A DNA stretch of 64,000 bases from contig CAWGLD010000004.1 in assembly GCA_963823335.1 (NCBI GenBank), positions 4,382 through 68,381 of the forward strand, in the 5' to 3' direction. Of the stretch, positions 17,327-61,157 are shown piece by piece (within the stretch, counting starts at the first letter, position 1; the number at the start of each line of letters is the position of its first letter). The notes beneath the pieces are model-generated. The model was not told the origin of the DNA. It saw only the letters and a program-made list of their open reading frames with translations, and made no database searches. The translations under genes were made by a program, and so were the position numbers. This stretch comes from an uncultured delta proteobacterium. GTDB lineage: Bacteria; Desulfobacterota; Desulfobacteria; Desulfobacterales; B30-G6.

Positions 17327-17398
17327 TCGCAACAATTTGCGAGGAATGTTCTGCCGTCCGGCAGTGCTTCGCAGCGACCGCAAGGAATTCTGTCTAAC
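17327..17398 (+). repeat. Palindromic module family E, copy E1 (partial)
   Basis: GAGGAATGTTCTGCCGTCCGGCAGTGCTTCGCAGCGACCGCAAGGAATTCTGTCTAA matches 27935-27990 and 41381-41436, with a compensatory hairpin change. Confidence 0.85.
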
Positions 17399-17402
17399 TC
17401 AG

Positions 17403-17654
17403 ATGCCAAAAAGAAACTCGCCACTACAGTTGAGGTGGGGAATATTGCTGCTTCTTGCAGGTCTGGGTGTTTTTTTTATGACACCCCAGAAAATGCAAGA
17501 GATTGAAAAGATAGAGCACTTTTCTTCATATATTCCTTTTATCTGGTTCTGTTTTTACTTTATGAGCATTCTGCTCATCGGCGGCGGGGTCAAAAAAATC
17601 TATCATAATTGTCGGCGCTCTGAGAATTCGAATGAAGCCGAAAACCAAAAATGA
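17403..17654 (+). CDS. Small membrane protein (hypothetical)
   Basis: The track ORF (17283) begins inside repeat E1. ATG 17403 yields an 83-aa protein with two TM helices. Confidence 0.35.
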   Translation: MPKRNSPLQLRWGILLLLAGLGVFFMTPQKMQEIEKIEHFSSYIPFIWFCFYFMSILLIGGGVKKIYHNCRRSENSNEAENQK

Positions 17655-24298: not shown

Positions 24299-24387
24299 GC
24301 CTGGGTGGCGGAATAGGTAGACGCAAGGGACTTAAAATCCCTCGGCCCTTAGTGGCTGTACGAGTTCAATTCTCGTCCCGGGCACCA
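24299..24387 (+). tRNA. tRNA-Leu (anticodon UAA), long variable arm, CCA encoded
   Basis: GCCTGGGTGGCGGAATAGGTAGACGCAAGGGACTTAAAATCCCTCGGCCCTTAGTGGCTGTACGAGTTCAATTCTCGTCCCGGGCACCA. Cloverleaf drawn by hand. TTGACA lies about 45 nt upstream. Confidence 0.9.
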
Positions 24388-24636
24388 TGATATCAAGGGG
24401 TTAGCCGACATGCTGGCCCTTTTTTCTTTAGGTGTTGACTTGAATTTACACAATCGTATTTGTCCAGATTGTCCCACCGATGAACAGTTGTATCACCCAA
24501 AAGTGTTTGCACTGACATAATTCAAACCGTAGGTTTAATGATAAAAACTGACCTTGCGCGGCAAGCTTCAAATCTTTAGTTTGCCACAATTCTTTAGCGA
24601 TAACGTAATATTACTCTGGCCTGATTATGCTTTCCA

Positions 24637-24735
24637 TAAATATTCCGGTAGCCGGTGTGCGAAAATAATCACAACTGGTCAAAGCTTGTATTCATAGGCC
24701 CCTCCGTGGTACGCTGGGCATGACCAGATGGTATC
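24637..24735 (+). repeat. Direct repeat R1 (partner R2 at 27610-27701)
   Basis: Two identical 20-mers (CCGGTGTGCGAAAATAATCA and GGGCATGACCAGATGGTATC) bracket a 49-nt core. The core has the same length as in R2 but is diverged. Confidence 0.8.
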
Positions 24736-24840
24736 AGCTTGATAAATGGGCATCTCCATTTATCACCACTTGGCATAATCTTGTAATACTGGCAAGTAAT
24801 CTCAGGTTTGATAATCTATTTTGTATCGTAGGATCTGTTT

Positions 24841-25278
24841 ATGAAAATTACCTATATATTTTTTGGATCTGTTTATGGGATTTTTATCTTATTTGTCAGT
24901 ATTGGCAGTGCAGCCAATTACACATTTACCTGTGACAAACCCCATCGAAATGACAATGTAATTGGATACAAGGTCTATTACAGGTTGAATTCCGGTACAT
25001 ACGATGGAGAATTTGAGCGGTGTCAAACTACCGATCCGAAATTTGATCGTGTTAAACATACTGGAAAATCGATTTGCCGGATGTTGCTGAAGAATACTGT
25101 TTTGCCGCTACAGCTTGGGAGCTGATGATTTCGAAAGCAATCCTTCCTAATGAAATTGGCTACGGTACGACCTGCGGTCAAATAAATTACGTAACAATCG
25201 GTGGAGCATGGTGGTGGCGATGGAGGCGGCGGCGGTGGTGGTGGTGGATGTTTTATTGGGGCGATGGAAGTGGAATGA
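24841..25278 (+). pseudogene. FN3-like secreted protein, multiply frameshifted paralogue of 25291-25731
   Basis: The signal peptide and Y.F.CD..H.ND.V.GY.VYYR align to the downstream copy. The LPDV.EEYCF..TA, NEIG.GTTCGQI and Gly-run+CFI segments are found in three different frames. Confidence 0.7.
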
Positions 25279-25290
25279 TAAAGGACGATT

Positions 25291-25731
25291 ATGAAAATTG
25301 CCTTTATGTTTATTGTATCCGTTCTGGGATTATGTATCTTTTCCGTCAATGTAGGTCGTACAGGCGAATACCACTTTGTCTGGGATCCACACCCCAATGA
25401 CCAGGTTGTTGAATTTAGGATCTATTACAGGATTAATTCCAGTCTTTACAATAAGACAGATTTTGAACCGGTGCAAATTAGCAATCCGAAATATAATCCA
25501 ACCAAGCCAGACTGGATATTAGTATTGCCGGATGTTACTGAAGAATACTGTTTTACCGTTACAGCGGTCGACGATAATGGTTATGAAAGTCATCATTCCA
25601 ATGAAATAGGCATGGGCACGACATGCGGTCAAATAGTTAATGATGGCAGTGTAAATGATGGTAGGAGCGGAGGTGGCAGATGTTTTATTTTACAGGGCAT
25701 TCTACATGACAAACGATGGGATTCTTATTAA
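25291..25731 (+). CDS. FN3-like secreted protein, C-terminally truncated right after a GGG(R)CFI motif
   Basis: Signal peptide. An FN3-like EYCFTVTAVDDNGYESHHSNE strand pattern. A Gly-rich linker followed by CFI, then unrelated sequence. Confidence 0.6.
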   Translation: MKIAFMFIVSVLGLCIFSVNVGRTGEYHFVWDPHPNDQVVEFRIYYRINSSLYNKTDFEPVQISNPKYNPTKPDWILVLPDVTEEYCFTVTAVDDNGYESHHSNEIGMGTTCGQIVNDGSVNDGRSGGGRCFILQGILHDKRWDSY

Positions 25732-26197
25732 ATCTTTTGTTTTCGGTCCTGCCTTGGAATCCGATTACGGGTCAAGTTTAGAAATACTCTACAAAATACT
25801 TAAGGGAAAATACCCGATGGTGCCAAAACTTGGTTTCGAGATTGTAGACGTCAGGGATGTTGCCGCTCTACACCGCTTGGCATACGAATCTCCCGATGCT
25901 ATAGGAAGACGCTTTCTCTGTTCAAGTGGGTTTCGGTGGTTGAAGGACATGTCTATATTTATTCGTGAAAAATTTCCTGAACATCGGGAAAAGATATCTG
26001 TCAGGGAAATGCCGAATTTACTTTTCAAAATCATTTCATTTTTCGATGGTAGTGCTGCCAGGTTTGTACCCTATTTGGAAATTAAAAGAGAGATGGATAT
26101 CAGCCCTGCACGGGAGGTGCTTGGATGGAATCCCAGGTCGCCAGAAGAATCTATTAAATCAGGTGCTCGTAGCCTTATTGATTTTGGGATTGTATAG
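25720..26197 (+). pseudogene. 5'-truncated NAD-dependent epimerase/dehydratase (extended SDR, aldehyde/flavonol-reductase-like) fragment
   Basis: Only the C-terminal roughly 160 aa is present (FVFGPALE...VDVRDVAALH...LGWNPRSPEESI). No Rossmann GxxGxxG N-terminus. Confidence 0.7.
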
Positions 26198-26273
26198 GCA
26201 AAATATAATTTAGATTTCCAAAATGGGAAGGATCCAAAACAATACTATCTATAGCTTTAACCGGGAGGAAAGT

Positions 26274-26810
26274 ATGACATCACTCACAGACCGAATGATT
26301 CGGGCAGCAAAACTGGATACAAGCCTTTATGAAGAGGTCGAAGCGGATAAAGAGGCCATGGGACAAGCCATGACAGTTGTTATTCTTTCCAGTGCTGCAG
26401 CAGGAATCGGAACTATCGGTGCAGCAGGGCTGAAGGGTCTTATTTTCGGAACCATAGCTGCTCTTGCAGGCTGGTTTATCTGGGCGTATTTGACATATGC
26501 TATTGGGACAAAGTTATTAGCTGAGCCACAAACAAAAGCAGACTATGGGGAATTACTGCGTACTATCGGTTTCTCCAGCTCTCCTGGAGTGCTTCGTATT
26601 TTTAGTATCATTCCCATGCTTGGGAACATCCTAAATTTGATTTGCGGTATCTGGATGCTGGTAGCGATGGTCATTGCCGTAAGACAAGCACTTGACTATA
26701 AAAGTACTTGGCGGTCAGTTGCTGTTTGCCTTATTGGTTTTATTGTTCAACTAATTGTTTTTGGTTTGTTTTTTCGGTTGGTAGGGGGATTCGGACCTTC
26801 ACAACCATAG
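26274..26810 (+). CDS. Yip1-domain membrane protein
   Basis: ATG 26274 follows GGGAGGA. The N-terminal MIRAAKLD..LYEEVE is followed by 4-5 TM helices, typical of bacterial Yip1-like proteins. Confidence 0.7.
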   Translation: MTSLTDRMIRAAKLDTSLYEEVEADKEAMGQAMTVVILSSAAAGIGTIGAAGLKGLIFGTIAALAGWFIWAYLTYAIGTKLLAEPQTKADYGELLRTIGFSSSPGVLRIFSIIPMLGNILNLICGIWMLVAMVIAVRQALDYKSTWRSVAVCLIGFIVQLIVFGLFFRLVGGFGPSQP

Positions 26811-26903
26811 TTTATATTTTAGGCTTTTCTCCCGATTTGTTGTAGAAATGCTGTTGGTGGAAGCCTTGTCGAAATCGGGATCGCTATCGGGATCGGGATC
26901 GAG

Positions 26904-27299
26904 ATGGTATTAGGTCATGAAAAATTAGACGTTTACCGCCTTTCAATCGGCTATGTCGCATGGGTTTATGAAAAGTGTGCCAGGCTGAGAGGCGTCCATC
27001 GTTCAGCAAGAGACCAGTGGCTTCGAGCCAGCCAGTCGATTGCGCTTAATATTGCAGAAGGCAACGGTAAGACAGCGAAGGCTGATCGGCGGCGATATTT
27101 CGAAATAGCGCGTGGGTCGGCATTGGAGTGTGCCGCAATCCAAGATGTCTTGGTAGTCGGAAAAGGTTTGGATAAAGTAGAAAGCCGGCAGCGCAAAGGT
27201 GAATTGGACCGCATTGCTGCAATGCTTAGTCGATTGGGCGGCAGGGGTTATAGCGTAAAGGAAGGGTTCGGGGAATACGGCTATACTGAACGGCAATAG
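26904..27299 (+). CDS. Four-helix-bundle protein (23S rRNA intervening-sequence protein / Avd-like family)
   Basis: KLDVYRLS...QWLRASQSIALNIAEGNGK...RRYFEIARGSALECAA, the family signature recalled for PF05635/TIGR02436-type proteins. Confidence 0.9.
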   Translation: MVLGHEKLDVYRLSIGYVAWVYEKCARLRGVHRSARDQWLRASQSIALNIAEGNGKTAKADRRRYFEIARGSALECAAIQDVLVVGKGLDKVESRQRKGELDRIAAMLSRLGGRGYSVKEGFGEYGYTERQ

Positions 27300-27403
27300 C
27301 GAGCGCATTCCCCGTAGCTTGCTGCGGGGTTAGCGAGCGAATCAAATAGATAAAATCCTTACCGCGAAGATTCCCTGCAGCTTGCTGCAGGGTACTCTTC
27401 AAT
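27298..27403 (-). repeat. Palindromic module family E, copy E2 (inverted relative to E3/E4)
   Basis: The reverse complement reads ATTGAAGAGTACCCTGCAGCAAGCTGCAGGGAAT...TTCGCTCGCTAACCCCGCAGCAAGCTACGGGGAATGCGCTCGCT. Confidence 0.8.
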
Positions 27404-27609
27404 TCGATCCCGATCCCGATCCCGATAGCGATTTCGATAAGATATAGCCCGAGCTGTATTTCTCTTGACCCGAATTTTGGAGCCCTTTCCTCCAACTAAA
27501 TTGGGAGAAGATCCATATTTTATTCCCGCATTATAATAGATATCTCCTAATTTCCGAGATCTCAATAGAATGCGATACAGCTCCAACAAAACAAGGTTAA
27601 CAGACCCCT

Positions 27610-27701
27610 AAATATTTCCGGTGTGCGAAAATAATCATCACCGACCACTTTTTGTATTGATGGGGATCTTCGCTATACGTTGGGCATGACCAGATGGTAT
27701 C
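27610..27701 (+). repeat. Direct repeat R2 (partner of R1)
   Basis: See R1. It has the same two 20-mers in the same orientation, 2.97 kb downstream. Confidence 0.8.
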
Positions 27702-27910
27702 GGTAATAATTTTCTTGACATTGCCCGGAGCCCATAATATTTAAATTTTAATGTCGTGCTCATCTGAAGCTCAATCTCACCTCCAATGCGACCTACATCT
27801 TCTAGCTCTAATTTCGCTAATTTAATTCTGCATCGTACCGCACTTTCTGAACCTCTCCGCTAAAGTAGATAACGGTTTCTCGCATTTTTTTACCTAATAA
27901 TCAGGTGAGG

Positions 27911-28055
27911 ATTGAAGAACCTCGCAGCAAGCTACGAGGAATGTTCTGCTGTGCGACAGTGCTTCGCAGCGACCGTAAGGAATTCTGTCTAATTTAGATT
28001 CGCTCGCTAACCCCGCAGTAGGCTACGGGGAATGCGCTCGCTGTTGCGGTTCAAT
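27911..28055 (+). repeat. Palindromic module family E, copy E3 (full length)
   Basis: Three hairpins: CCTCG-CAGCAAGCTA-CGAGG, CTGCTG-TG-CGACAG and CCCCG-CAGTAGGCTA-CGGGG. Nearly identical to 41357-41525. Confidence 0.85.
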
Positions 28056-28084
28056 AAACCGTAAACGAGAGGTGAATAGACAAT

Positions 28085-28342
28085 ATGAAGACATTAGACG
28101 AACGCAAAAAAGAGTTTGCTATCACTTCTGATAATCTGACAGCGTATTGGAGAGAAGGTAAAAGAGATCTAAAACGATTCAATAAACTTGTGAAGCTGTA
28201 TAAGATTGCCGGTGATAATTTAACCAACCACCCAGACTATGAAGAGCCTATGCTCCGGCTGGCAAGCGAGCATTATTATAGGCGATACTACTGGCTGGCG
28301 GGTATTTACCGGCACAATCATACCGAGAAGCATGTCAGATGA
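28085..28342 (+). CDS. Hypothetical 85-aa protein
   Basis: GAGAGG RBS 8 nt upstream. No recognisable motif. Confidence 0.35.
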   Translation: MKTLDERKKEFAITSDNLTAYWREGKRDLKRFNKLVKLYKIAGDNLTNHPDYEEPMLRLASEHYYRRYYWLAGIYRHNHTEKHVR

Positions 28343-28430
28343 TTCTTTAGGTACTACGACCGCCGTGTATCTATAAAGACCATACACGCATCACACCACG
28401 CTTTAGCCTGCGTATGAATTTAATTATAAT

Positions 28431-28762
28431 GGATCATCTCCCAAAGAGTTGATCCAAATTAAGGATTCAAGGATTCCAGGGGCCCAGGGGTCGAGTGAGA
28501 TGAAGTGAGGTGCCAGCTAAATGCTTAAGAATTATAAAGAGTTAAATGTCTGGAAAAAAGCGTATAAACTTTGTTTGGATAAACGATGATATCCGGTGAT
28601 TTGGATTATATGAACAAGGAAAAGCTTCAGGGTTTAAGAGAGGCGCTTGGGAATGTAGAGAGAATGCTAAAAGCCATGATCACATCCCTGGAAAACAAAC
28701 ACTTGAATCCTTGAATCCTGGATTCCTTGAACCCTTTCTCCCAACTTATTGGGAGAAGATCC
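28431..28762 (+). mobile_element. Cassette copy C1: 4HB pseudogene with internal deletion, full termini
   Basis: GGATCATCTCCCAAAGAGTTGATCC...TCTCCCAACTTATTGGGAGAAGATCC. Remnants MLKNYKELNVWKKAYKLCLDKR* and, out of frame, GDLDYMNKEKLQGLREALGNVERMLKAMITSLENKHLNP*. Confidence 0.75.
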
Positions 28763-28785
28763 ATATATTTTAACGAGGTGAGTTA

Positions 28786-29019
28786 ATGGATGCCTTGGCA
28801 ATTGCAATTGTCTTATCATTAGTGGGTCTGCTGCTTCTTCTGTTTTTAGATATGCGAAATGTACTCTTCCGTAGAATAAATATAAAGCGTTCAAGAAGAG
28901 AACGACGTAAAAGTTTTATTGCTTCAAAAAACCGCATGAGGAGATCTGGTAATGATCGCAGACAGTCAGCGCAAAGCCTAAGTTATAGTAACGAAAAATT
29001 GAAATTCAGAGGTCTATAG
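28786..29019 (+). CDS. Hypothetical membrane-anchored, arginine-rich protein
   Basis: GAGGTGA RBS. One N-terminal TM helix, then RSRRERRK...RRSGNDRRQ. Confidence 0.35.
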   Translation: MDALAIAIVLSLVGLLLLLFLDMRNVLFRRINIKRSRRERRKSFIASKNRMRRSGNDRRQSAQSLSYSNEKLKFRGL

Positions 29020-29448
29020 TGGTTGAAATGCGGAACGGCAAAGAGCGCAGGCTCATAAAGAAAAGAGATGTGGCCGTACTTCTTCATACAGTGGCCCAGA
29101 AAGAAGGGCTATCAAGTACCGCAGAAGTGACAAAGACAGGAGGTTAAAAGATTAGGATTTCACATCATCATAGGGGTGCTTATTGTTGGGACATAAGAGG
29201 TACCCGTGATAGGATGATCTCTCTAAATATTTTAGTTTTGCCCATGGGCTGTGCTTGTCGCAGCCCTATTTATTTTGTTCATAAATTGACATGCCCAGCA
29301 GAATATGATCATTTAAAATAAATACCCCACAAGTATTAACCTGATTCTATTCAGAAATATTATTACATAAAATTCTTGTTTCAGCCGACACTACTATATC
29401 TGATTATCAAGTGCCATGGATAAAACACCTCAAAAGGAAGGCGATGAT

Positions 29449-30409
29449 ATGAGTAGGACAACGAAAAAACTTCTTGTAATAGTTCCTGTAATCATTCTTT
29501 TGGTCTTAATTTCCTGTTATTTTTTATTCCCAGGAGCTATCTTTAAAACTCTGGTAAAAATGGAAAGAAATGCGGCTGGTCTTGAACAAAGAAGCATAGA
29601 AGTGGGCAATCTGCACATCGAATATTTAGAAGGTGGCAAAGGGGAAGTGTTGGTATTACTGCACGGATTTGGTGGAAATAAAGACAATTGGACACGAGTG
29701 GCAAAGTATCTCACACCTCATTTTAGGGTAATTGCCCCTGATCTTCCAGGTTTTGGAGAAAGTTCAAGTGATATGGGGGCTTCATACACCTATGCCGCAC
29801 AAGTTGACCGACTGCATGAATTTATTAGGGCGTTAGAGTTGGGTGTATTCCATCTTGCAGGCAATTCGATGGGAGGTAATATTGCTGGCAATTATACAGC
29901 AAAATTTAATGATGAAATTAGTAGCTTGTGGCTTATTGCTACAGGTGGGATTATTTCATCACAACCAAGTGAACTGAGCCAAAGATTAAAATCAGGCGCC
30001 CGGAATCCTTTTGGTCGTGGAAAATACGGAAGAATACGATCAGCTATTAGATTTCATTTTTGTTAATATACCTCCTATTCCTGGCGCAATAAAACGGTAC
30101 CTCACTCAGGAAGCCATAGATCATCGTCCGCTTAATGAAATAATCTTTAAGCAAATTACATCTACTGATACTGATAATTTTGTTCCTCTCGAAGTGCTGC
30201 TTAAGAATGCGCAAACCAAAACCTTAATTTTATGGGGGGATAATGATAGAGTACTACATATGTCTGGAGCTAAAATTCTCGAATCAGTCATGCCAAATGC
30301 AAAAAGTGTTATCATGAAAAATATTGGTCATGTTCCTATGGTGGAAAAACCTCAAGAATCTGCGAATATTTTTTTGAACTTTATCGGGAAAAAGGACTCG
30401 CAAGTCTAA
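29449..30409 (+). pseudogene. Alpha/beta-fold hydrolase, frameshifted near 30005-30013 (or a sequencing error)
   Basis: HGFGGNKDNW and nucleophile elbow GNSMGG lie in ORF 29416-30066. The C-terminal WGDNDRV...GHVPMVEKP (catalytic His) lies in ORF 30011-30409, in another frame. Confidence 0.75.
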
Positions 30410-30921
30410 GTTGTCTTGAATTGAACTTGTGATGTGGATAGTTGGTACGATCCTACAGATGTATCAGTACTTTTGCTATACCCACCAAGATAGGGCGTTT
30501 GTCATAATAACCTTCCGATAGCGGCGGTTTTTTGAGCCCGCAAGGGAGTATATATGACATCTAATATGGCATATGGTTCCGTAAACGTCTAGTTTTTTTG
30601 TTGATGAAATCAACACCTAGCGGTTGTCACCATCTGAATAATTTCACCTGCACGTGCCCAAAACCTGCCTGATCGTAAATTAGACCAAACGGAATATATT
30701 TTAATGACAACCGCTATAAACTCATCCATATTTCCATACAATGTGACCTTTTATACATAAACCATTAACAATGGAAATGAATATCATTCCATGAAACTTA
30801 CTATTATAACTATAAATAATTGTATTTAAAAATGTCATTTATGATGGCATTATTATTGCTTATTAATAGGATAACTCACAATTGATGTGCTTAACATATT
30901 TAGGATAGGAGAGTGCATAAA

Positions 30922-31200
30922 ATGGAAGCAGCATATGACTTTGATGGATATAGAAGAATAAATGAAAGGAAAAACTACCATAAGGAAGTATCATTTTCCA
31001 CAGAATCGATGATTTTTCCTGCAACGATAAAAAATCTTAGCATGGGGGGCGCGCTTGTTGGCACCACAAGTATACCTAAAATAAAAACAGGGATAAAAAT
31101 AATTATTACTATTCCTTTTGCAAACAAACCAGGCTGTATGAAAAGAAAAGCAATAGTCTTGTGGGCCGAAAATGATCAATTTGGCATTCAGTTTATTTGA
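30922..31200 (+). CDS. PilZ-domain protein
   Basis: RRINERK (RxxxR-like) and NLSMGGAL (D/NxSxxG). GGAG lies 9-10 nt before ATG 30922. Confidence 0.75.
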   Translation: MEAAYDFDGYRRINERKNYHKEVSFSTESMIFPATIKNLSMGGALVGTTSIPKIKTGIKIIITIPFANKPGCMKRKAIVLWAENDQFGIQFI

Positions 31201-31367
31201 AAAATGCAAGAAAATATTCTGATTCTATTGTTACCAATGTATAACCAACCGGGGTGTCACTCATGAGATTGGCAGGCATAGATTGGCTGATTTTATCCAA
31301 GAAATAACCCGGCATGTGCGATTTAATGGTTAGATGGAACTTATCAGACCAATAGGAGAATAATTAA

Positions 31368-31518
31368 ATGTATTTTTACGATTTTCAATGTCAAGGATGT
31401 GGTTGGGACATGGAGAGATTGGTATCTCGCTATGTGATCGAGATTAAATGCCCGATGTGCGGCTACATGTCACAGAAACAGATGGCAGCACCCAAAAAGG
31501 AAAATTAAAAGGCCAATA
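31368..31518 (+). pseudogene. FmdB-type zinc-ribbon small protein, apparent 1-nt frameshift
   Basis: MYFYDFQCQGCG... stops after 25 codons. The second knuckle, IKCPMCGY...KGQ*, continues in the +1 frame from 31441. GGAG RBS upstream. Below the track's length cutoff. Confidence 0.4.
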
Positions 31519-31910
31519 ACGTAAGATTGTATTTACAATTCTCAAATCTGCGATACCTCCAAAACCTGTGATATTTATTATTCACATATCATGAAACGCC
31601 ATTTTCCGGTTAGGCTTCCTACGCCCCGTGAGGCGATGTCTCCCCGGCATCATGGCCGGGTGCCCACACTTATGAACGCTTCGGGCCGTTCATTATTCAC
31701 CACGGATTTCAATTTCAAAGAGCACAATGTTAATGAATCGCTTATCCCAAAAACAAAAATCATCAAAAAAATCGGAGCCAGATTATATATGTTACCAATG
31801 GGGGGTAGGCATTTGGCCCCCGGTAGTGGGCTATCAAAATATTTTTTTTATTGTTCTCTTGTCTTAACAGCATTGGTGATATCGGACGATATAAATAACG
31901 ATTGGAGAAA

Positions 31911-32834
31911 CTAAAAACGTGAGATGTGAGACGTAAGACGTGAGACGGGGAGCAGAGGGTATGTCGTCAAAACATCAATTTGATGAATCAGGTAATCAGA
32001 AAAAAAAGCGTCAGACCAAAGACTCAACTTATCTTGATGCGCTACATTCCTCAAGAATGGCTCAACGTCTTTTTTGGCCAGATCGAAATCAATCTCCTTG
32101 ATCTTGGCAGACAGCAGTTCAAGCAGTTTTTCTCTGGTCAACGCCTCGGAGGTATCAATATGACCTGTTTGCACCATCTTGTTTTTAAGAAATCCCAGAT
32201 CACATGGGGTATTGTTTTTCACAAACCAAACTAAATCATACCAATCCCGGCCCTTGATGTTGGTTCTCACGGTTCGGCACAATAGTGCATGCATTTTGCC
32301 GGCAAGCAGACAGGGCAGTGTCATGGTTTTAATGGTAAACGGAATCGGATTCAGATGATATTTGGTGTCACTGGCAAACCCTGTGACCGGATCTTGATCA
32401 ATTTCCAATTTGATCTTCATCACGGCATTTTTATGGGTTTTCAGATTTGAATCAATTTTTAATAAATGGATCAGTGTATTGGCTTTTATAAAAGCCGAGT
32501 CTACCGTGCTTTTATTCTTTTTGTTGATTTCTTCTGTGGAAACCTCAAAACCCCACAACGCCAGCTCTGATTTTACCGCTTCAAGATACTTTTTAAGGTT
32601 GAAGTCCTTTTCCGGCTGAATTAGAGAAAAATCTACATCCTCGGAGAAACGATCCAACTTGTGAAGAATTCGTAATGCGCTTCCCCCGTAAAAAACAGCT
32701 TTTTCATAAAATTTTGAACGCCATAAACCAAGCAGAATGATCTCCTGTATGATCTCTTTCAACGCATTTTCATGATCATGAATTGTGTGCAATTCATACC
32801 TGCGGAGCATTTGATCAACCTTATCATCAAACAT
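31911..32834 (-). CDS. AbiEii/AbiGii-family nucleotidyltransferase toxin (type IV TA / abortive infection)
   Basis: FYGGSALRILHKLDRFSEDVDFSL (the NTase motif of DUF1814). 8-nt overlap with the upstream antitoxin. The last roughly 12 codons run into a CGTGAGA word repeat. Confidence 0.85.
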   Translation of the reverse strand: MFDDKVDQMLRRYELHTIHDHENALKEIIQEIILLGLWRSKFYEKAVFYGGSALRILHKLDRFSEDVDFSLIQPEKDFNLKKYLEAVKSELALWGFEVSTEEINKKNKSTVDSAFIKANTLIHLLKIDSNLKTHKNAVMKIKLEIDQDPVTGFASDTKYHLNPIPFTIKTMTLPCLLAGKMHALLCRTVRTNIKGRDWYDLVWFVKNNTPCDLGFLKNKMVQTGHIDTSEALTREKLLELLSAKIKEIDFDLAKKDVEPFLRNVAHQDKLSLWSDAFFSDYLIHQIDVLTTYPLLPVSRLTSHISRF

Positions 32835-33444
32835 GGCCTTCCTTTACGCAGTTGACCAGCAGCTTTATGCCCTGCCTGCCATATACGGCTGAGATTTCTT
32901 CCAACAATGATATTTCAAGATTCCTGCCGCCACTGTAATCCAATCGCATCAATTCCAGGTATTCCTTCATTTCATTTTTTGTTGAAATATGAGGCTGTGC
33001 CGCTGTGATATCGCATAACGCTTTTTCAGGGGAAGCAATCAGGATATTTTTATGATCCCCTGCATCCTCAAGCCGAATACCAATATTGAACGCTGCCTTT
33101 GGACAATACAAATAAGAAAATCGGCCCACCTGAGTCTCAAACTGCTTTTTTCTTTTTGCCGTCATGCTGATGATGAGCTCAACACGCTCTGGTATCATGT
33201 CCCAGAATGCCAATGCAGTTTGACCCGTGATGTAAGACGGTCCATAAATCAGATTTGCCAAGACAAACTTGTTGTATGGCTTGTTATACACCTTGCCCAG
33301 TACGTAAAGCCCTTTTTTAACCCTTAAAATATCTTTATTCTGGATGAGACTTCGGATCTTGTCTCTGGGTTTTTTGTAATCCCTTAACGCGTGCAGCAGC
33401 AAATTGTAATCAAATTCCGCAGGTAGTTGTATTAAGTTATTCAT
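32827..33444 (-). CDS. AbiEi-family antitoxin (transcriptional regulator-like)
   Basis: 205 aa. N-terminal wHTH-like segment (IRSLIQNKDILRVKKGLYVL). GPSYITGQTALAFW is typical of AbiEi. Position is immediately 5' of AbiEii. Confidence 0.8.
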   Translation of the reverse strand: MNNLIQLPAEFDYNLLLHALRDYKKPRDKIRSLIQNKDILRVKKGLYVLGKVYNKPYNKFVLANLIYGPSYITGQTALAFWDMIPERVELIISMTAKRKKQFETQVGRFSYLYCPKAAFNIGIRLEDAGDHKNILIASPEKALCDITAAQPHISTKNEMKEYLELMRLDYSGGRNLEISLLEEISAVYGRQGIKLLVNCVKEGHV

Positions 33445-33700
33445 AGTTTTGCAACCAGTATGTCTAATTTTTTGGACATATTGGTTGACTATAAGGTAAT
33501 ATGAGTGAATTTGTCAATGAAAAAGTTCAGGTCGTCTATGCCCGGTGGTGTGAGAGAGGGGGGTCGTGAGGCCTCCCCTACTCGATACTGGATTGTGCAG
33601 CTTGATATATGGATGGTAACCTGTTTTTTTCATCTTGATCATCTCCAACAACCATGGCAGTATCTCAACAGCACCAATCCTCTTCCAAGGAGGTCCCACC

Positions 33701-33934
33701 ATGTCCAGCCACGCATCCAATGCTAAGCTACTCTTCACCAATTGTATCAATCTCAACTCAAGAAGCTGCCGGTATACAAAGAAACCTGAAACTATCCTGT
33801 CCCTGTTCAGCGATCCAGAAAATTTCGCGGTCAGTGATCAGAAGATTCACGAACTGAACGACATATGTTCCCAATGTGATTCATACCATATGCCTGACAA
33901 ATTAAAAGATTTGGATCATCTCCCAAAGAGTTGA
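33701..33934 (+). CDS. Small Cys-rich protein (CX8C...CX2C), 3' end replaced by insertion of cassette C2
   Basis: Strong AAGGAGG lies 8 nt before ATG 33701. The reading frame enters the element at 33913, and removing the element restores ...PDKLKDLQ*. Confidence 0.45.
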   Translation: MSSHASNAKLLFTNCINLNSRSCRYTKKPETILSLFSDPENFAVSDQKIHELNDICSQCDSYHMPDKLKDLDHLPKS

Positions 33935-34174
33935 TCCAAATTAAGGATTCTAGGATTCCAGGAGTCCAGGGTTCGAGTGAGATGAAGTGAGGCATCAGCT
34001 AAATGCTTAAGAAGTATAAAGAGCTAAAAGTCTGGAAAACAAACACTTGAATCCTTGAATCCTGGACTCCTTGTACCCTTTCTCCCAACTAACCCTCATG
34101 TCCGGGGCGGTCACAACGAAGGATGAAAATATTGATGAGAATGATGGCTATTTTCATATAAATTGGGAGAAGAT
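33913..34174 (+). mobile_element. Miniature cassette copy C2 (ORF deleted) with a nested 72-nt insert in the terminal hairpin loop
   Basis: Flanked by ATTAAAAGATTT on both sides (33901-33912 and 34173-34184, with the rightmost AT shared with the element end). Confidence 0.8.
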
Positions 34175-34259
34175 TAAAAGATTTGCAGTGACCGTTGCGA
34201 TTCGTGCTATTTATACTTGCCTTATCTGCTTCCTGTAACTATATTGGATGATTAATTTT

Positions 34260-34454
34260 GGATCATCTCCCAAGGAGTTGATCCAAATTAAGGATTCAAG
34301 GATTCCAGGGGTCCAGGGCTCGAGTGAGATGAAGTGAGGCATCAGCTAAATGCTTAAGAATTATAAAGAGTTAAAAGTCTGGAAAACAAACACTTGAATC
34401 CTTGAATCCTTGACTCCTTGAACCCTTTCTCCCAATCTAATTGGGAGAAGATCC
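34260..34454 (+). mobile_element. Miniature cassette copy C3 (same deletion junction as C2)
   Basis: GGATCATCTCCCAAGGAG...ATGCTTAAGAATTATAAAGAGTTAAAAGTCTGG|AAAACAAACACTTGAATCC...TTGGGAGAAGATCC. Flanks are TTAATTTT / ATAACTTTTT. Confidence 0.8.
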
Positions 34455-34481
34455 ATAACTTTTTACAGAGGAGGATAGACA

Positions 34482-34838
34482 ATGAAGGAGTTTGATGTAG
34501 CGCTGAAAGCAGTAGCAGAAGGTCTGAAAACCATAGCGCAGGGCATGGAGAAGATAGCTGAGAAATTGGAGGAAAGTGTTCCCGATAAACAGGCCAAGGC
34601 TCAGCCTGCGCGTAAACCTGCCAAAAAACCAAAGAAAGTACCGGCAAAGAAAGCTGTGAAAAAAACTGCGGCAGATGCAGTGTTGGCGATAGTCAACAGA
34701 TCAAAAAAGGGTGTCAATGGTGCGACTCTTGCGGAAAAGACAGGCTACGACAGCAAAAAAGTTGCCAATATTGTTTTCAAATTGAGGAAGCAGGGCAAGA
34801 TTAAGAGCGTTGGTCGGGGTGTTTACGCGAAGGCGTAA
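34482..34838 (+). CDS. Histone-H1-like lysine/alanine-rich DNA-binding protein with C-terminal winged-helix-like segment
   Basis: GGAGGA RBS. The central segment is KQAKAQPARKPAKKPKKVPAKKAVKK. Confidence 0.6.
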   Translation: MKEFDVALKAVAEGLKTIAQGMEKIAEKLEESVPDKQAKAQPARKPAKKPKKVPAKKAVKKTAADAVLAIVNRSKKGVNGATLAEKTGYDSKKVANIVFKLRKQGKIKSVGRGVYAKA

Positions 34839-35055
34839 ATAGTGGAAAATTCCGACGCTTTCTCTAACCATTCGCACGGATGGCAGTTGCTTGACAAAAA
34901 GGTCATTTTTATGTAGCATAAATGTTCCACTGTCTGGAATAATGCTTTTTAGGACACAAGGTAACTTGTTGCGGTTTTCATTAGAAGTTATCTCAAAAGA
35001 GTTTTTTGGCCCAGTTGATGACTTCTAATAAGATGCCTTATAGCCCGGTGAAACG

Positions 35056-35529: not shown

Positions 35530-35730
35530 ATGGAAAATATCGTTAATATTATCAAAACTATCCCCATCCTGATAGCCGCCATCCTGCTCGGCAACTGGTT
35601 TCTGTCTGAACTCAAACGTGCCAATGCAACCGGCAAACCCTGGTACACGGCCTATATTTCGATACCGGGATTGTTGATACTGCTGGCCATACTCGTAACC
35701 CCCCTAGTCCTATGGCTGATGTCACATTGA
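35530..35730 (+). CDS. Small two-TM membrane protein
   Basis: 66 aa with two hydrophobic helices. Overlaps the helicase start by 19 nt. Confidence 0.4.
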   Translation: MENIVNIIKTIPILIAAILLGNWFLSELKRANATGKPWYTAYISIPGLLILLAILVTPLVLWLMSH

Positions 35731-37085
35731 AAATCGTGCTGTCCAAAGACCTGAAGCTTTCCGATCTTCCCAAAGCACTCAAGACAGAACTCATCGGCAA
35801 ACTGACCATTCCCAATCCCAAATGGCTCGAAAACGCCAGAATGGGAAGATGGAACCGGAATGTTCCCAAACTGCTTCGCTTTTTCCACCGTTACAAAGAA
35901 ACTCTTTGGATTCCCAGGGGATACCTGCGACAGTTAATTATGATGTGCCGGCATTACAATATTTCATACCAGATGGAGGATCTCAGACGAAACCTGCCAT
36001 CAGCAAATTTTTCGTTTCAGGGTGAATTAAAACCTTTTCAGAAAAAGGCTGTCGACAAAATGCTCAGCAGAGATTTTGGGACGCTGAATTCACCTACAGG
36101 CAGCGGCAAGACCGTCATGGGTCTCTTTATGATCGCCCACAGACAGCAACCTGCACTGGTGGTCGTTCACACAAAAGATCTGGCCTATCAGTGGATTGAA
36201 CAAATTATACGCTTTTTGGGAATCCCGGAATCGCAAATCGGAATGATTGGATCCGGAAAAAAACAGATTGGGGATGCGATTACCGTCGCACTCGTCCAGT
36301 CCCTTTATCGTTGTGCAGATGTCGTATCAAAGAGGGTGGGGCACATCATCGTTGACGAGTGCCATCGGACTCCGAGCCGGACCTTCACGGACGCTGTGAC
36401 CGAATTTGATGCGAGATACATGCTTGGCCTGTCAGCCACCCCTTTTCGCAGGGACAACCTTTCAAATTTGATATTCTGGCATCTGGGTGATGTGCACCAT
36501 TCTGTGGACAAAGCCCATCTGATCGAGGAAGGGCATATTCTCGAAGCTGAAATTATCCTTCGTGAAACTGATTTCGAACCATACCACGACCCTGTGAACA
36601 GCTACAGCAAAATGCTGTTGGAATTGACCATGAACGATGAGCGAAACCATCTCATTGCATCGGACGTGGTCAAAGAGATTCAAAAGGGTGATGGCATCTG
36701 CCTCGTGCTTTCAGACAGAAAGAGACATTGTGAAACACTGCTGTCGCTTCTGCGGTATAAACATCGTGTGGAGGCCGATCTCTTGACGGGTGATCTGTCC
36801 AACGAGCAGCGGCAACACGTGCTTCAGCGGATCAAGGCCGGCCTGGTCCCGGTTGTAATTGCCACCGGCCAGTTGGTGGGGGAGGGGTTTGACTGCCCCA
36901 ATCTGACAACTCTTTTCCTGGCCACACCGATCCGTTTCAGCGGGAGGGTCCTTCAATATCTTGGAAGGGTTCTCAGGCCAGCGACCGACAAAAGAAGCGC
37001 CAGGGTCTACGATTATGTCGACGTCAAAGTCGGTGTACTCCAGTCCGCCGCAAAGCATCGGCAAAAAGTCTATGCAGGCATGTGA
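35712..37085 (+). CDS. SF2 DEAD/DEAH-box helicase (XPB/ERCC3- or type III res-subunit-like)
   Basis: Motif I SPTGSGKT, motif II VDECH, motif III LSATP, motif VI QYLGRVLR. Confidence 0.85.
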   Translation: MADVTLKIVLSKDLKLSDLPKALKTELIGKLTIPNPKWLENARMGRWNRNVPKLLRFFHRYKETLWIPRGYLRQLIMMCRHYNISYQMEDLRRNLPSANFSFQGELKPFQKKAVDKMLSRDFGTLNSPTGSGKTVMGLFMIAHRQQPALVVVHTKDLAYQWIEQIIRFLGIPESQIGMIGSGKKQIGDAITVALVQSLYRCADVVSKRVGHIIVDECHRTPSRTFTDAVTEFDARYMLGLSATPFRRDNLSNLIFWHLGDVHHSVDKAHLIEEGHILEAEIILRETDFEPYHDPVNSYSKMLLELTMNDERNHLIASDVVKEIQKGDGICLVLSDRKRHCETLLSLLRYKHRVEADLLTGDLSNEQRQHVLQRIKAGLVPVVIATGQLVGEGFDCPNLTTLFLATPIRFSGRVLQYLGRVLRPATDKRSARVYDYVDVKVGVLQSAAKHRQKVYAGM

Positions 37086-41273: not shown

Positions 41274-41356
41274 ATTCGCTTTGCAAATTTATTAAATGCG
41301 ACTTCGTCGCTTCTATCGACGAAAGGTAGATAACGGATCCAAAAGGCCCGGCACTG

Positions 41357-41525
41357 ATTGAAGAACCTCGCAGCAAGCTACGAGGAATGTTCTGTCGTGC
41401 GACAGTGCTTCGCAGCGACCGTAAGGAATTCTGTCTAATTTAGATTCGCTCGCTAACCCCGCAGCATGCGAAGCACTGCCGGACGGCAGAACCTACGGGG
41501 AATGCGCTCGCTGTTGCGGTTCAAC
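41357..41525 (+). repeat. Family E copy E4, with a 28-nt nested insert in the third hairpin loop
   Basis: Identical to E3 except for a CT/TC swap and the insert CATGCGAAGCACTGCCGGACGGCAGAAC (41465-41492). Confidence 0.85.
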
Positions 41526-59600: not shown

Positions 59601-59695
59601 ATTTTGAATTAAATGAATCAAATCCTTTGAAAGATGGGTTGCCGAACCCCAAGGAAGATCTGAACCGCCATTTAGGTAAAAGAAAGGAGAGAGCC

Positions 59696-60106
59696 ATGGA
59701 CTACGCCTACCAACGACTGGACATCTGGAAAAAGGCGGTCGATCTTTCCATCAAGGTCATTCAATGTATCGCCGAAGTGGCCAATGAGGTTGAAACACAG
59801 CGCCTTACCGAGGAAATCGAAATGAGTGCCGTCAATATTGCCACAAACATCGCCAAGGGAAAAGCCTGTTTGTCGGAGGAGGATTTCATTTATTATCTGT
59901 TTTTGTCAAAAAGATCACTGTATGAAACCATGACACTGCTGGAAATTCTCAAAGCCAAACAGTTGATTACCGACGAGTGCTACATGGAAATCGAAACAAA
60001 AGGAAAAAACATCACTGGAATGCTGATTGAATTTATCCGCTCAGTCAAAGAAACCGGCAGCCCCTATCAGGCAGAAAACTACCAGGCTGCTTACAGAAAC
60101 CGATAG
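59696..60106 (+). CDS. Four-helix-bundle protein (divergent 23S-IVS-protein/Avd-like), copy a
   Basis: RLDIWKKAVDLSIKV...SAVNIATNIAKGK...FLSKRSLYETMTLLEIL. AAGGAGAG RBS before ATG 59696 (the track start at 59627 is less likely). Confidence 0.8.
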   Translation: MDYAYQRLDIWKKAVDLSIKVIQCIAEVANEVETQRLTEEIEMSAVNIATNIAKGKACLSEEDFIYYLFLSKRSLYETMTLLEILKAKQLITDECYMEIETKGKNITGMLIEFIRSVKETGSPYQAENYQAAYRNR

Positions 60107-60121
60107 AACAAAAGGAGATAA

Positions 60122-60514
60122 ATGATGACCTATATCTATGAAAAGCTCGACGTCTGGCAAAAAGCCATGCAGTTTGCCGGGGATGTCATTGATTCCATGT
60201 CGATGATGAACAGCAAAGACTACCATCAAGAGATTTTAGAGAAAACAGAAGGGAGTGCAGCCGGTATCGCCGGCGCCATTGCCATGGGAAAATCCTACAG
60301 TTCAAAACACGATTTCGCCAGACATCTGTATCATTCCAGGGGCGCCTTGTACGAAACCATGACTCTGTTGGAGTTGTTGAAACGTAAACGCCTCGTTGCC
60401 GAAGATAAATTTGCTGATTTCGACACCAGGGCAAACCAACTGACCGCCATGCTGACCGCCCTGATTAAATCGATTTACACACCCAAATCGGACAATGGCA
60501 AACAATCATCATAA
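60122..60514 (+). CDS. Four-helix-bundle protein, copy b (paralogue of copy a)
   Basis: KLDVWQKAMQFAGDV...GAIAMGKSYSSKHDFARHLYHSRGALYETMTLLELL. AAGGAGA RBS. Confidence 0.8.
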   Translation: MMTYIYEKLDVWQKAMQFAGDVIDSMSMMNSKDYHQEILEKTEGSAAGIAGAIAMGKSYSSKHDFARHLYHSRGALYETMTLLELLKRKRLVAEDKFADFDTRANQLTAMLTALIKSIYTPKSDNGKQSS

Positions 60515-61157
60515 GCGTCAACCTCCTGAGATGAGGCTGATAATTTCAGTCGATTACAGAGAAAGGCCTTCCGGACTTCCCGATCTTCTGGTTGATGCAG
60601 GATTTGAGGTGGCTATAGTCAAGCTCCCTTATTGTGACTACATAATTAACCATGGAATATCCATCGAAAGAAAAACCGGCAGGGATTTCGCTATCTCAAT
60701 CATCGACGGCAGACTATTTAAACAGGCCAGTTGGATGCGAAAGCGAACCAATCGGCCTGTTTTTCTCCTGGAAGGAAGTCCGTTTCATGTCGATGTGGAC
60801 ATACATAAGAAGGCGATTAAGGGCGCAATGCTTTCTATACAAGTCGCATGGAGCATCCCCATCATTTATTCTCGATCTATGGAGGAAACATGCAATATTT
60901 TCAGAACACTGGCAACCCAGCAGGAAAACCAGACCGAACGCCTGGAACTCAGGCACGGTTTTCGATCCAAACGGATGATCTCAAAACGGTTGTATCTTCT
61001 ACAAGGGCTTCCAAATATTGGTCCGGTTATGGCTCTGAGATTGATCAGACATTTTAAAACAGTCCACCGTGTTATGAACGCCAGTATCGATGAATTAACG
61101 GAAGTGGATGGCATTGGGGAAGATACTGCTGATAAGATCCAGGAAATTCTCCGGTAA
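60495..61157 (+). CDS. ERCC4-domain (XPF/Mus81/Hef-type) nuclease with C-terminal (HhH)2
   Basis: VDYRE...CDYII...ISIERKTGRDFAISIIDGRLFKQ...PVFLLEG. The HhH segment is LQGLPNIGPVMALRL...EVDGIGEDTADKI. Overlaps 4HB-b by 20 nt (alternative ATG at 60531). Confidence 0.9.
   Translation: MANNHHKRQPPEMRLIISVDYRERPSGLPDLLVDAGFEVAIVKLPYCDYIINHGISIERKTGRDFAISIIDGRLFKQASWMRKRTNRPVFLLEGSPFHVDVDIHKKAIKGAMLSIQVAWSIPIIYSRSMEETCNIFRTLATQQENQTERLELRHGFRSKRMISKRLYLLQGLPNIGPVMALRLIRHFKTVHRVMNASIDELTEVDGIGEDTADKIQEILR

Follow-up and report, generated by a model that had tools for sequence, protein, structure and literature searches.

The window analysed here, a stretch of 64,000 nucleotides (nt) from an uncultured delta proteobacterium of the Desulfobacterales lineage B30-G6 (assembly GCA_963823335.1, contig CAWGLD010000004.1, positions 4,382 to 68,381 of the forward strand), carries, directly behind a gene for a Yip1-family membrane protein, a 693-bp element (26822-27514) with a gene of the PF05635 four-helix-bundle family inside. 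With a probability of about 75%, we read this element as a non-autonomous DNA transposon of the mobile insertion cassette (MIC) type, the gene-carrying counterpart of a miniature inverted-repeat transposable element (MITE). It consists of three layers: a shell with ISL3-type ends that lacks a transposase gene, a PF05635 gene cassette, and a 113-nt palindromic repeat that arrived later. The shell and its target are made up as follows.

26223-26810: gene for the Yip1-family membrane protein (stop codon 26808-26810), whose homologues carry PF04893
26814-26821, no strand: left copy of the target-site duplication, ATATTTTA, read from the sequence and present as a single copy in metagenome contigs L137 and L140
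26822-26838, plus strand: left terminal inverted repeat, GGCTTTTCTCCCGATTT, of ISL3 type, with the counterpart GGCTCTTCTCCCGATTT in locus L135
27498-27514, plus strand: right terminal inverted repeat, AAATTGGGAGAAGATCC, which pairs with GGCTTTTCTCCCGATTT
27515-27522, no strand: right copy of the target-site duplication, ATATTTTA, read from the sequence and from the empty-site comparison

The insertion is documented by the orthologous site in its empty state, which is found in L137 and L140, both at about 92% nucleotide identity to the Yip1 locus of the window. These contigs align to the window over 26214-26821 and resume at 27515 with an overlap of exactly 8 nt, a single ATATTTTA, and their junction reads CCATAG TTT ATATTTTA TTCCCGCATTATAA... 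Therefore, all 693 bp inserted as one unit and duplicated 8 bp of the target. The duplicated target begins 3 nt, and the element itself 12 nt, past the Yip1 stop codon. The terminal repeats are complementary over 17 nt at 82%, and this pairing shifts the left boundary to 26822 from 26821, where a first-pass annotation of the window, made from its letters and a list of its open reading frames (ORFs), had set it. The flanking 7-bp ATATTTT of that annotation is a direct repeat as claimed, but its length is 8 bp. Its central proposal, a recombinase-less mobile unit with a PF05635 ORF in a stem, inverted termini and a target duplication, is borne out by the empty sites, which it had suggested looking for in relatives, and by the ORF list, in which the element contains no ORF other than the four-helix-bundle gene.

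The element is also found at other sites. The copy in L002 is 99.6% identical and has a different left flank, and that in L135 lies behind a TusA gene, has the left end GGCTCTTCTCCCGATTTG and is free of the 113-nt insert. At L135:880-1000, an element right end of the type seen in the window (A-type, below) abuts the interior of the sister type (B-type) without a B left terminus (...TTGGAGAAGAACC ACCCAAATTAAGGGTTCAAGG...), which makes a fused or nested pair. Folded as RNA, the whole 693-nt unit closes end to end into a hairpin (z = -5.5), as anticipated in the first-pass annotation, and the uninterrupted relative in L135 folds likewise (z = -4.1).

The termini belong to a family. The motif TTGGGAGAAGATCC, with at most two mismatches, has seven occurrences in the window where 0.69 would be expected (none of 100 shuffles gives as many), and its matches mark three smaller copies, whose inverted termini had already been noticed to resemble those of the element.

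28431-28762, plus strand: copy B, a MITE of 332 bp, with termini of the same type and arms of 8-mer words (AAGGATTC); flanks agree at 3 of 8 positions
33913-34176, plus strand: copy C, a MITE of 264 bp, with an internal insertion of about 70 nt and a decayed right tip (GATTA)
34260-34454, plus strand: copy D, a MITE of 195 bp, the most deleted derivative; flanks agree at 6 of 8 positions

Copy C is bordered by a perfect 8-bp duplication, AAAGATTT, at 33905-33912 and 34177-34184. Copy B still has both ends, N- and C-terminal, of what was another four-helix-bundle gene, and it also folds as an end-to-end hairpin (z = -4.7). That the termini would recur at other loci, as supposed at first pass, was seen in a scan with the right-end pattern, limited to one genome per species: 36 loci were obtained, from at least eight metagenome-assembled genomes (MAGs) labelled Desulfobacterales or 'delta proteobacterium', most copies being 144-340 bp long. 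Terminal inverted repeats across the family measure 14-22 nt and are of the GGATCTTCTCCCAA type. The 8-bp flanks are identical in 11 of 29 two-ended copies and match at seven of eight positions in three more; only 0.12% of mismatched flank pairings give identity over all eight. Together with the empty sites holding one ATATTTTA, these counts dispose of the concern, raised at first pass, that the flanking repeat might be mere chance in an AT-rich spacer.

When aligned, copies B and D and the MAG copies form nested internal deletions of one longer element (alignment A1). This longer element has the same termini and arms of 8-mer words (AAGGATTC / GAATCCTT), and of its different four-helix-bundle gene the first 20 or so codons (MLKNYKELKVWKKAYKLCL...) and the last 40 or so (...VERMLKAMIKSLENKHLNP*) remain; in the longer copy L018, the four-helix-bundle fragment scores 70.8 bits on PF05635. 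All three small copies of the window are what internal deletion has left of a sister element with a different four-helix-bundle gene. The same kind of ISL3-like shell houses two PF05635 clades, one with 6-mer words (A-type) and one with 8-mer words (B-type).

The resemblance to ISL3 was judged against annotated elements of that family, some from plasmids (L141, L142, L143 and L043), the ends of which were read directly. The Shewanella control has the ends GGCTCTTCTCTGAACATGGTGGAG and GGCTCTTCGTTGTTATTGGTGGAA with the duplication ATAAAAAC, ISKox3 has GGGTCTTCCCTTGTTGTGGTGG and GGGTCTTCCCCGATCATGGTGGGAAGGC with ATGCATAT, and annotated ISL3 ends also read GGCTCTTCTCTGAACATGGTGG and GGGTCTTCCCCGATCATGGTGGGAAGGC with 8-bp duplications. 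The element family ends in GGCTCTTCTCCCGATTTGTTG (L135), GGATCTTCTCCCAATAAGTTGGGAG, GGATCTTCTCCCAATTTAGTTGGAGGAAAGGGC and GGATCTTCTCCCAATAAGTTGGGAGAAAGG. Common to both sets are a GGNTCTTC start, a CCCGAT/CCCAAT block, a TGG-rich inner block and a small internal palindrome; the first 8-10 nt shared with ISL3 are GG(C/A/G)TCTTC(T)C, followed by CCCGAT...TGGTGG-like motifs. The AT-rich 8-bp duplications of the family likewise match those of the controls. Ends of this type make an ISL3-family DDE transposase, encoded elsewhere in the genome and acting in trans, the most likely mobiliser.

No protein recovered so far fits this role. A phmmer search with five ISL3 transposases gave no match in the window and, among every ORF gathered, only the unrelated L043 copy, and in an all-against-all ORF comparison of the 36 MAG loci the recurrent proteins were sigma-54-type activators and orthologues only. 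Two long 'copies' were considered as transposase carriers and rejected, as the enclosed ORFs look by eye like other enzymes: in L009:6285-7351 (minus-strand coordinates, 1067 bp) the family termini enclose a cytidylate-kinase-like ORF, and in L020:3727-5309 (1583 bp) a metallo-beta-lactamase-fold-like ORF, both without a duplication. Each may be a composite structure, or a pair of separate ends, rather than a single element.

The first-pass annotation had left the mobilising activity open between an unknown enzyme in trans and an RNA- or hairpin-based route; action in trans stands, but the latter route is unsupported for the outer unit. Spread by retro-insertion or by a single-strand-hairpin mechanism of the IS200/IS605 or repetitive extragenic palindrome (REP)-RAYT type would suit the long hairpin fold of the whole unit, and L022:8-1575 does hold an ORF that by eye resembles the reverse transcriptase of a group II intron and ends some 200 nt upstream of a family copy's right end, where it may represent an intron inserted into the element. 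However, precise 8-bp duplications combined with terminal inverted repeats of 14-22 nt are the signature of DDE transposition, inspection of ORFs by eye revealed neither an HUH/Y1 transposase nor a reverse transcriptase near the element, and IS200/IS605 and REP elements have, to our knowledge, neither duplications nor terminal inverted repeats. Assignment of the element itself to the IS200/IS605 or REP-RAYT class was rejected on the same grounds, and an RNA or single-strand route appears highly improbable.

The second layer is the gene, of a kind first seen inside ribosomal RNA (rRNA) insertions, and the third is nested within it.

26904-27299, plus strand: PF05635/TIGR02436 four-helix-bundle gene, 131 amino acids (aa), core intact, last codons (RQ*) supplied by the nested insertion
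27290-27402, no strand: nested 113-nt palindromic repeat with two hairpins, CCCCGTAGCTTGCTGCGGGG and CCCTGCAGCTTGCTGCAGGG, absent from L135 and present in L001 and L002

Membership of the family, presumed at first pass, was confirmed with both profiles: with PF05635 the ORF reaches 67.6 bits, where 33.8 is the cut-off, and spans profile positions 1-105 of 106, and with TIGR02436 it reaches 62.6 bits, where the cut-off is 24. Among proteins of solved structure, XCC0516 (PDB 2gsc, E = 4e-6) is nearest to it. The conserved motif of PF05635, GxxRxxxSxxxNxxE (PMC3936711), is present as R-ASQ-S-IAL-N-IA-E in ...WLRASQSIALNIAEG..., with Q in place of the leading G. A protein search yielded at least 7,624 homologues at E ≤ 1e-5 (7,682 candidates scored). 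The best 120 of these are 78-98% identical, many lie on short, repeat-like contigs, and their named sources are Thermodesulfobacteriota, Desulfobacteraceae, Deltaproteobacteria, Desulfuromonadales, Syntrophotaleaceae and Lentisphaerae. Purifying selection is strong, with a ratio of nonsynonymous to synonymous substitution rates (dN/dS) of 0.03-0.12 where measurable, synonymous sites being saturated in most pairs.

The ORF had been called intact, which holds for the four-helix core but not for the acidic tail. The 113-nt repeat sits between codon E129 and the ancestral tail, and relatives that are 98% identical (P0001 and P0002) end in ...GYTEFDPDPDPDSDFDKI; the window ORF ends in ...GYTERQ* because the repeat inserted between core and tail. 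This repeat is one of a second family, 113-168 nt long, characterised by paired hairpins such as CCCCGTAGCTTGCTGCGGGG and ends of the form TTGAA...TTCAA, with members in the window (27290-27402, 27910-28053 on the minus strand, 41356-41523 and 17327-17404) and in MAG loci (L011:3613-3727 and L031:5521-5630). L002 carries the 113-nt insert too; therefore, the composite kept transposing after loss of the tail, and the intact protein is dispensable in cis.

The gene is enclosed in a stem of which one side is its own tail-coding sequence.

26853-26865, plus strand: 5' strand of an outer helix, GTTGGTGGAAGCC, seen in the fold and in family-wide covariation; pairs with 27485-27496
26868-26903, plus strand: 5' arm, tandem NTCGNN words (GTCGAA ATCGGG ATCGCT ATCGGG ATCGGG ATCGAG) ending at the start codon
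27403-27446, plus strand: 3' arm, NNCGAN words (TTCGAT CCCGAT CCCGAT CCCGAT AGCGAT TTCGAT) plus AAGATATAG
27485-27496, plus strand: 3' strand of the outer helix, CTTTCCTCCAAC, seen in the fold and in covariation

By pairing, the arms are complementary over 38 nt at 87% (26865-26902 with 27404-27441), so the stem noticed around the ORF at first pass is real, but it is not the near-perfect one of about 33 nt then described; the pairing is imperfect because the hexamer words stand in slightly different order on the two sides. The 3' arm is the ancestral coding sequence of the acidic tail FDPDPDPDSDFDKI*, now severed from the ORF. How general this layout is was examined in a metagenome scan that returned at least 528 relatives, of which 80 loci were kept. 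Among the resulting set of about 85 related cassette loci, arms are present in nearly all and the stem accompanies the gene in all contexts examined; the ISL3-like ends are confined to the A-type copies (window, L001, L002 and L135). Termini and stem, which the first-pass annotation had treated as one device, are thereby separable layers, and the four-helix-bundle cassette with its closure of leader on tail is a separate, older and far more widespread unit than the ISL3-type shell. Hundreds of relatives from several phyla have the closure, and transposon ends are lacking in most of them.

In 54 of 55 open cases the downstream NNCGAN run is in frame as an (Asp/Glu-x)n tail, e.g., FDPDPDSDFD, and the words of the leader go with the type of the tail: ATCGGG with DPDP, GTCGTT with DNDN, CTCGTG with EHEH, CTCGTA with EYEY, ATCGCC with DGDG, and ATCGAA with DFDF. 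Leaders are more complementary to their own tail (ungapped score 18.0) than to the tails of other loci (9.9) or to shuffles (5.9), and the sets of hexamer types overlap more within a locus than between loci (0.246 vs 0.093, permutation p < 1e-4), so that hexamer types co-vary over about 70 relatives from several phyla. The outer helix covaries in about one third of the loci (GTTGGGGC/GCCCCAAC, GTTGGCGA/TCGCCAAC, GTTCTGGC/GCCAGAAC) and here too the true partner gives the higher score (p < 1e-4). As the leader is antisense to the codons that the gene uses for its acidic tail, the sequence is under two constraints, one on the protein and one on the nucleic acid. Arm words persist despite saturated synonymous sites, and CG is fixed in every hexamer, beyond the codon requirement.

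Cassettes of this kind have left derivatives. At L039:2921-3496 one has inserted independently between genes for an ABC-transporter ATPase and a threonine aldolase, which are 35 nt apart at L146:2466-2500, the empty state of the same site; the junction has at most an imperfect repeat of 5-6 bp (CTTAC/CTTGAC). At L145:941-1018, a solo 5' arm with its ribosome-binding region has been joined to the beginning of the threonine-aldolase gene, of which it is now the leader. In L101 (2890-2975 and 3410-3620), and also in L115, a four-helix-bundle gene is flanked on either side by tandem ORF-less hairpins of arm words, built of 5'-type words, a short loop and 3'-type words. These look like cassettes minus the gene, much as ORF-less intervening sequences (IVSs) of 23S rRNA do.

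From these layers a course of events can be drawn up. The 693-bp unit inserted at the ATATTTTA target behind the Yip1 gene, the step recorded by the empty sites, its shell most likely being moved by an ISL3-family transposase in trans. A promoter and terminator scan gave nothing above shuffle expectation, and none inside the element on the plus strand; given this and the position directly behind the host gene, the cassette is probably transcribed by read-through. Once transcribed, the stem of about 35 bp would form double-stranded RNA, and host RNase III would probably excise the cassette from the transcript, or the stem would control translation; this step is proposed by analogy with the IVS stems of Coxiella and others, RNase III cleavage of which is documented (PMC4990558). 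The 113-nt palindromic repeat entered the tail-coding region at a later time, after which, as the L002 copy records, the composite continued transposing.

Several points weigh against reading the element as a transposase-dependent MIC whose stem acts in RNA. Duplications are missing at copies B and D. The assignment to ISL3 is based on how similar the ends are, at about 17 of their first 22 nt, and on how long the duplication is, and an ISL3 transposase with matching ends is absent from the window, from 36 × 8 kb of related MAG sequence and from about 100 other loci. Most of the comparative loci are metagenome contigs or MAGs, which are possibly chimeric at repeats. Random capture of a passenger does not readily explain why two unrelated four-helix-bundle genes occur in one shell type. 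Finally, arm mismatches have no excess of the G:U type over the A:C type (35 vs 36), and therefore nothing shows the stem acting in RNA rather than in DNA.

This last point would be expected if the hexamer-word arms acted in DNA, as sites of homology or recombination (hairpins or cruciforms) that travel with the cassettes and serve their exchange, deletion and copying between loci, the ISL3 shell being one vehicle among several. The CG fixed in each hexamer beyond the needs of the protein also favours such a role, and the same cassette with the same downstream DNA is found behind different upstream sequences, the junction lying exactly at the 5' arm (L039 vs L040; L042 vs L043/L052). These swapped upstream flanks, the ORF-less tandem hairpins of L101 and L115 and the solo arm at the host gene start in L145 fit a DNA-level role equally well. 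On the other hand, the cassettes have no associated recombinase, the cases with different upstream sequence could be assembly chimeras at repeats, the in-frame translation of the 3' arm in 54 of the 55 open cases fits a feature of messenger RNA, and the homologous rRNA family is processed as RNA (PMC4990558). A function of the arms in DNA is possible, if on the doubtful side.

The protein itself could take part in the spread. Avd, a four-helix-bundle protein, serves diversity-generating retroelements as an accessory to their reverse transcriptase, and on this model the PF05635 protein would be an accessory factor for spread or retention of the element, e.g., a nucleic-acid-binding cofactor recognising the word-repeat stem. 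The sharing of one kind of ISL3-like shell by two clades would then be explicable, and the very strong purifying selection, the thousands of homologues with many of the best matches on short, repeat-like contigs, and the conservation of arm words where synonymous sites are saturated are all in line with it. However, gene-less deleted copies still have perfect duplications, the tail-truncated composite still reached a second site, the PADLOC defence models have no match to the protein, and we know of no catalytic activity of the four-helix-bundle fold. A role of the IVS ORF in mobility was nevertheless proposed by Ralph and McClelland, as cited in PMC4990558. We consider an accessory function unlikely.

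As a MIC or MITE, the element shows all the testable defining features of the class. It shares with these elements terminal inverted repeats, a duplication of fixed length (8 bp), AT-rich targets, the lack of a transposase gene, many copies, and decay through internal deletion. It differs in that it carries as cargo a four-helix-bundle gene closed by a stem of its own, that the small MITEs here derive from a gene-carrying cassette and not from a transposase-encoding insertion sequence, and that two four-helix-bundle clades share one shell type, with no full-length ISL3 partner seen in the window or the fetched loci.

The resemblance to the ORF-containing IVSs of 23S rRNA in Leptospira, Coxiella ('S23p') and Xanthomonas is of another kind. 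Both have a protein of the PF05635 family, an ORF in the loop of a long stem made by the unit's own ends, short tandem words in the stem, and ORF-less hairpin derivatives; in Coxiella, a variable number of heptameric repeats is found upstream of the IVS (PMC4990558). However, the element is intergenic, and its 3' arm is the coding sequence of the acidic tail. It lies between the Yip1 gene and non-coding DNA, Rfam detected two tRNAs and nothing else in the window, hence no rRNA, and a blastn search of all loci with the E. coli rrnH operon gave no match, so that the roughly 130 related loci have no rRNA flanks either. Because it is outside rRNA, the element is not an rRNA intervening sequence, and the label 'IVS-like' of the first-pass annotation stands as an analogy of stem design and protein family but not of location. 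A further difference is that evidence of insertion at the DNA level, an empty site with a duplication, exists here and is lacking in the IVS literature.

With Avd, the protein shares the fold superfamily (PF05635 and the bAvd-like family), but there is neither a reverse transcriptase nor a pair of template and variable repeats nearby, and with the bAvd model PF22296 the window protein gives no match at E ≤ 0.01. A diversity-generating retroelement was rejected on account of this missing match and of the absence of an adjacent reverse transcriptase among the ORFs of 24.1-29.4 kb. The Correia or nemis elements of Neisseria are hairpin-forming MITEs that are processed by RNase III when co-transcribed. 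Like them, the element is intergenic, has inverted ends and lies right behind a gene, and it would yield a transcript with a long double-stranded stem; in contrast to them, it carries a conserved protein gene, its duplication is of 8 bp rather than TA, and its termini are different.

PF05635 is a very large family, and we know of no function of its proteins outside diversity-generating retroelements. Published work treats the proteins as uncharacterised and the origin of IVSs as unclear, transposition having been put forward only as a hypothesis (PMC4990558, PMC3936711, PMC11270868). In the literature searched there was no earlier account of a mobile cassette with PF05635, TIGR02436 or 'S23p', of an ISL3-type cassette carrying a PF05635 gene, of an ISL3-derived MITE or of a hexamer closure between leader and tail; nor did we find there the conserved design in which a leader is antisense to the tail with covarying hexamer types. 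The pair of filled and empty sites proves that an ORF-in-stem unit of the PF05635 family inserts as DNA, and a series of decay from gene-carrying cassette through MITE to bare hairpin is visible; the literature searched contained neither such a pair nor such a series. For annotators, this means that certain four-helix-bundle genes labelled 'hypothetical intergenic', and certain MITEs, belong together in a single system. More tentatively, PF05635 genes with word-repeat stems might be widespread selfish cassettes, the stem of which lets them sit harmlessly in host transcripts including rRNA (as IVSs) and perhaps serves also as a site of copying, exchange or reduction; ISL3 shells would then be secondary vehicles that captured cassettes more than once. 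If true, this would offer a testable answer at the DNA level to the 30-year-old question of the origin of rRNA IVSs.

The surroundings of the element are poor in long genes. Within 24.1-29.4 kb, the only ORFs of more than 150 aa are 25655-26197, without a Pfam match, and the Yip1 gene. More widely, positions 24299-35000, starting with a tRNA gene (24299-24384), form a repeat-rich, decayed-looking stretch with few long ORFs. All four ISL3-type elements lie in it, along with an apparently frameshift-split gene for an alpha/beta-hydrolase (29416-30066 and 30011-30409) and a gene for an AbiEii toxin (31911-32834, 98.5 bits); a gene for a ResIII/DEAD helicase follows downstream (35712-37085). This stretch is possibly a variable island or a hot spot for integration. 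Elsewhere in the window, two PF05635 four-helix-bundle genes stand in tandem (59693-60106, 71.3 bits; 60125-60514, 66.2 bits), the end of the pair being overlapped by a gene for a nuclease with ERCC4 and helix-hairpin-helix domains (60495-61157, ERCC4 89.8 bits). The PADLOC models matched none of the three four-helix-bundle proteins of the window nor the ERCC4 neighbour. Flanked by no word-repeat stems, the tandem genes may represent a different functional setting for the PF05635 family, paired with a structure-specific nuclease (59693-61157).

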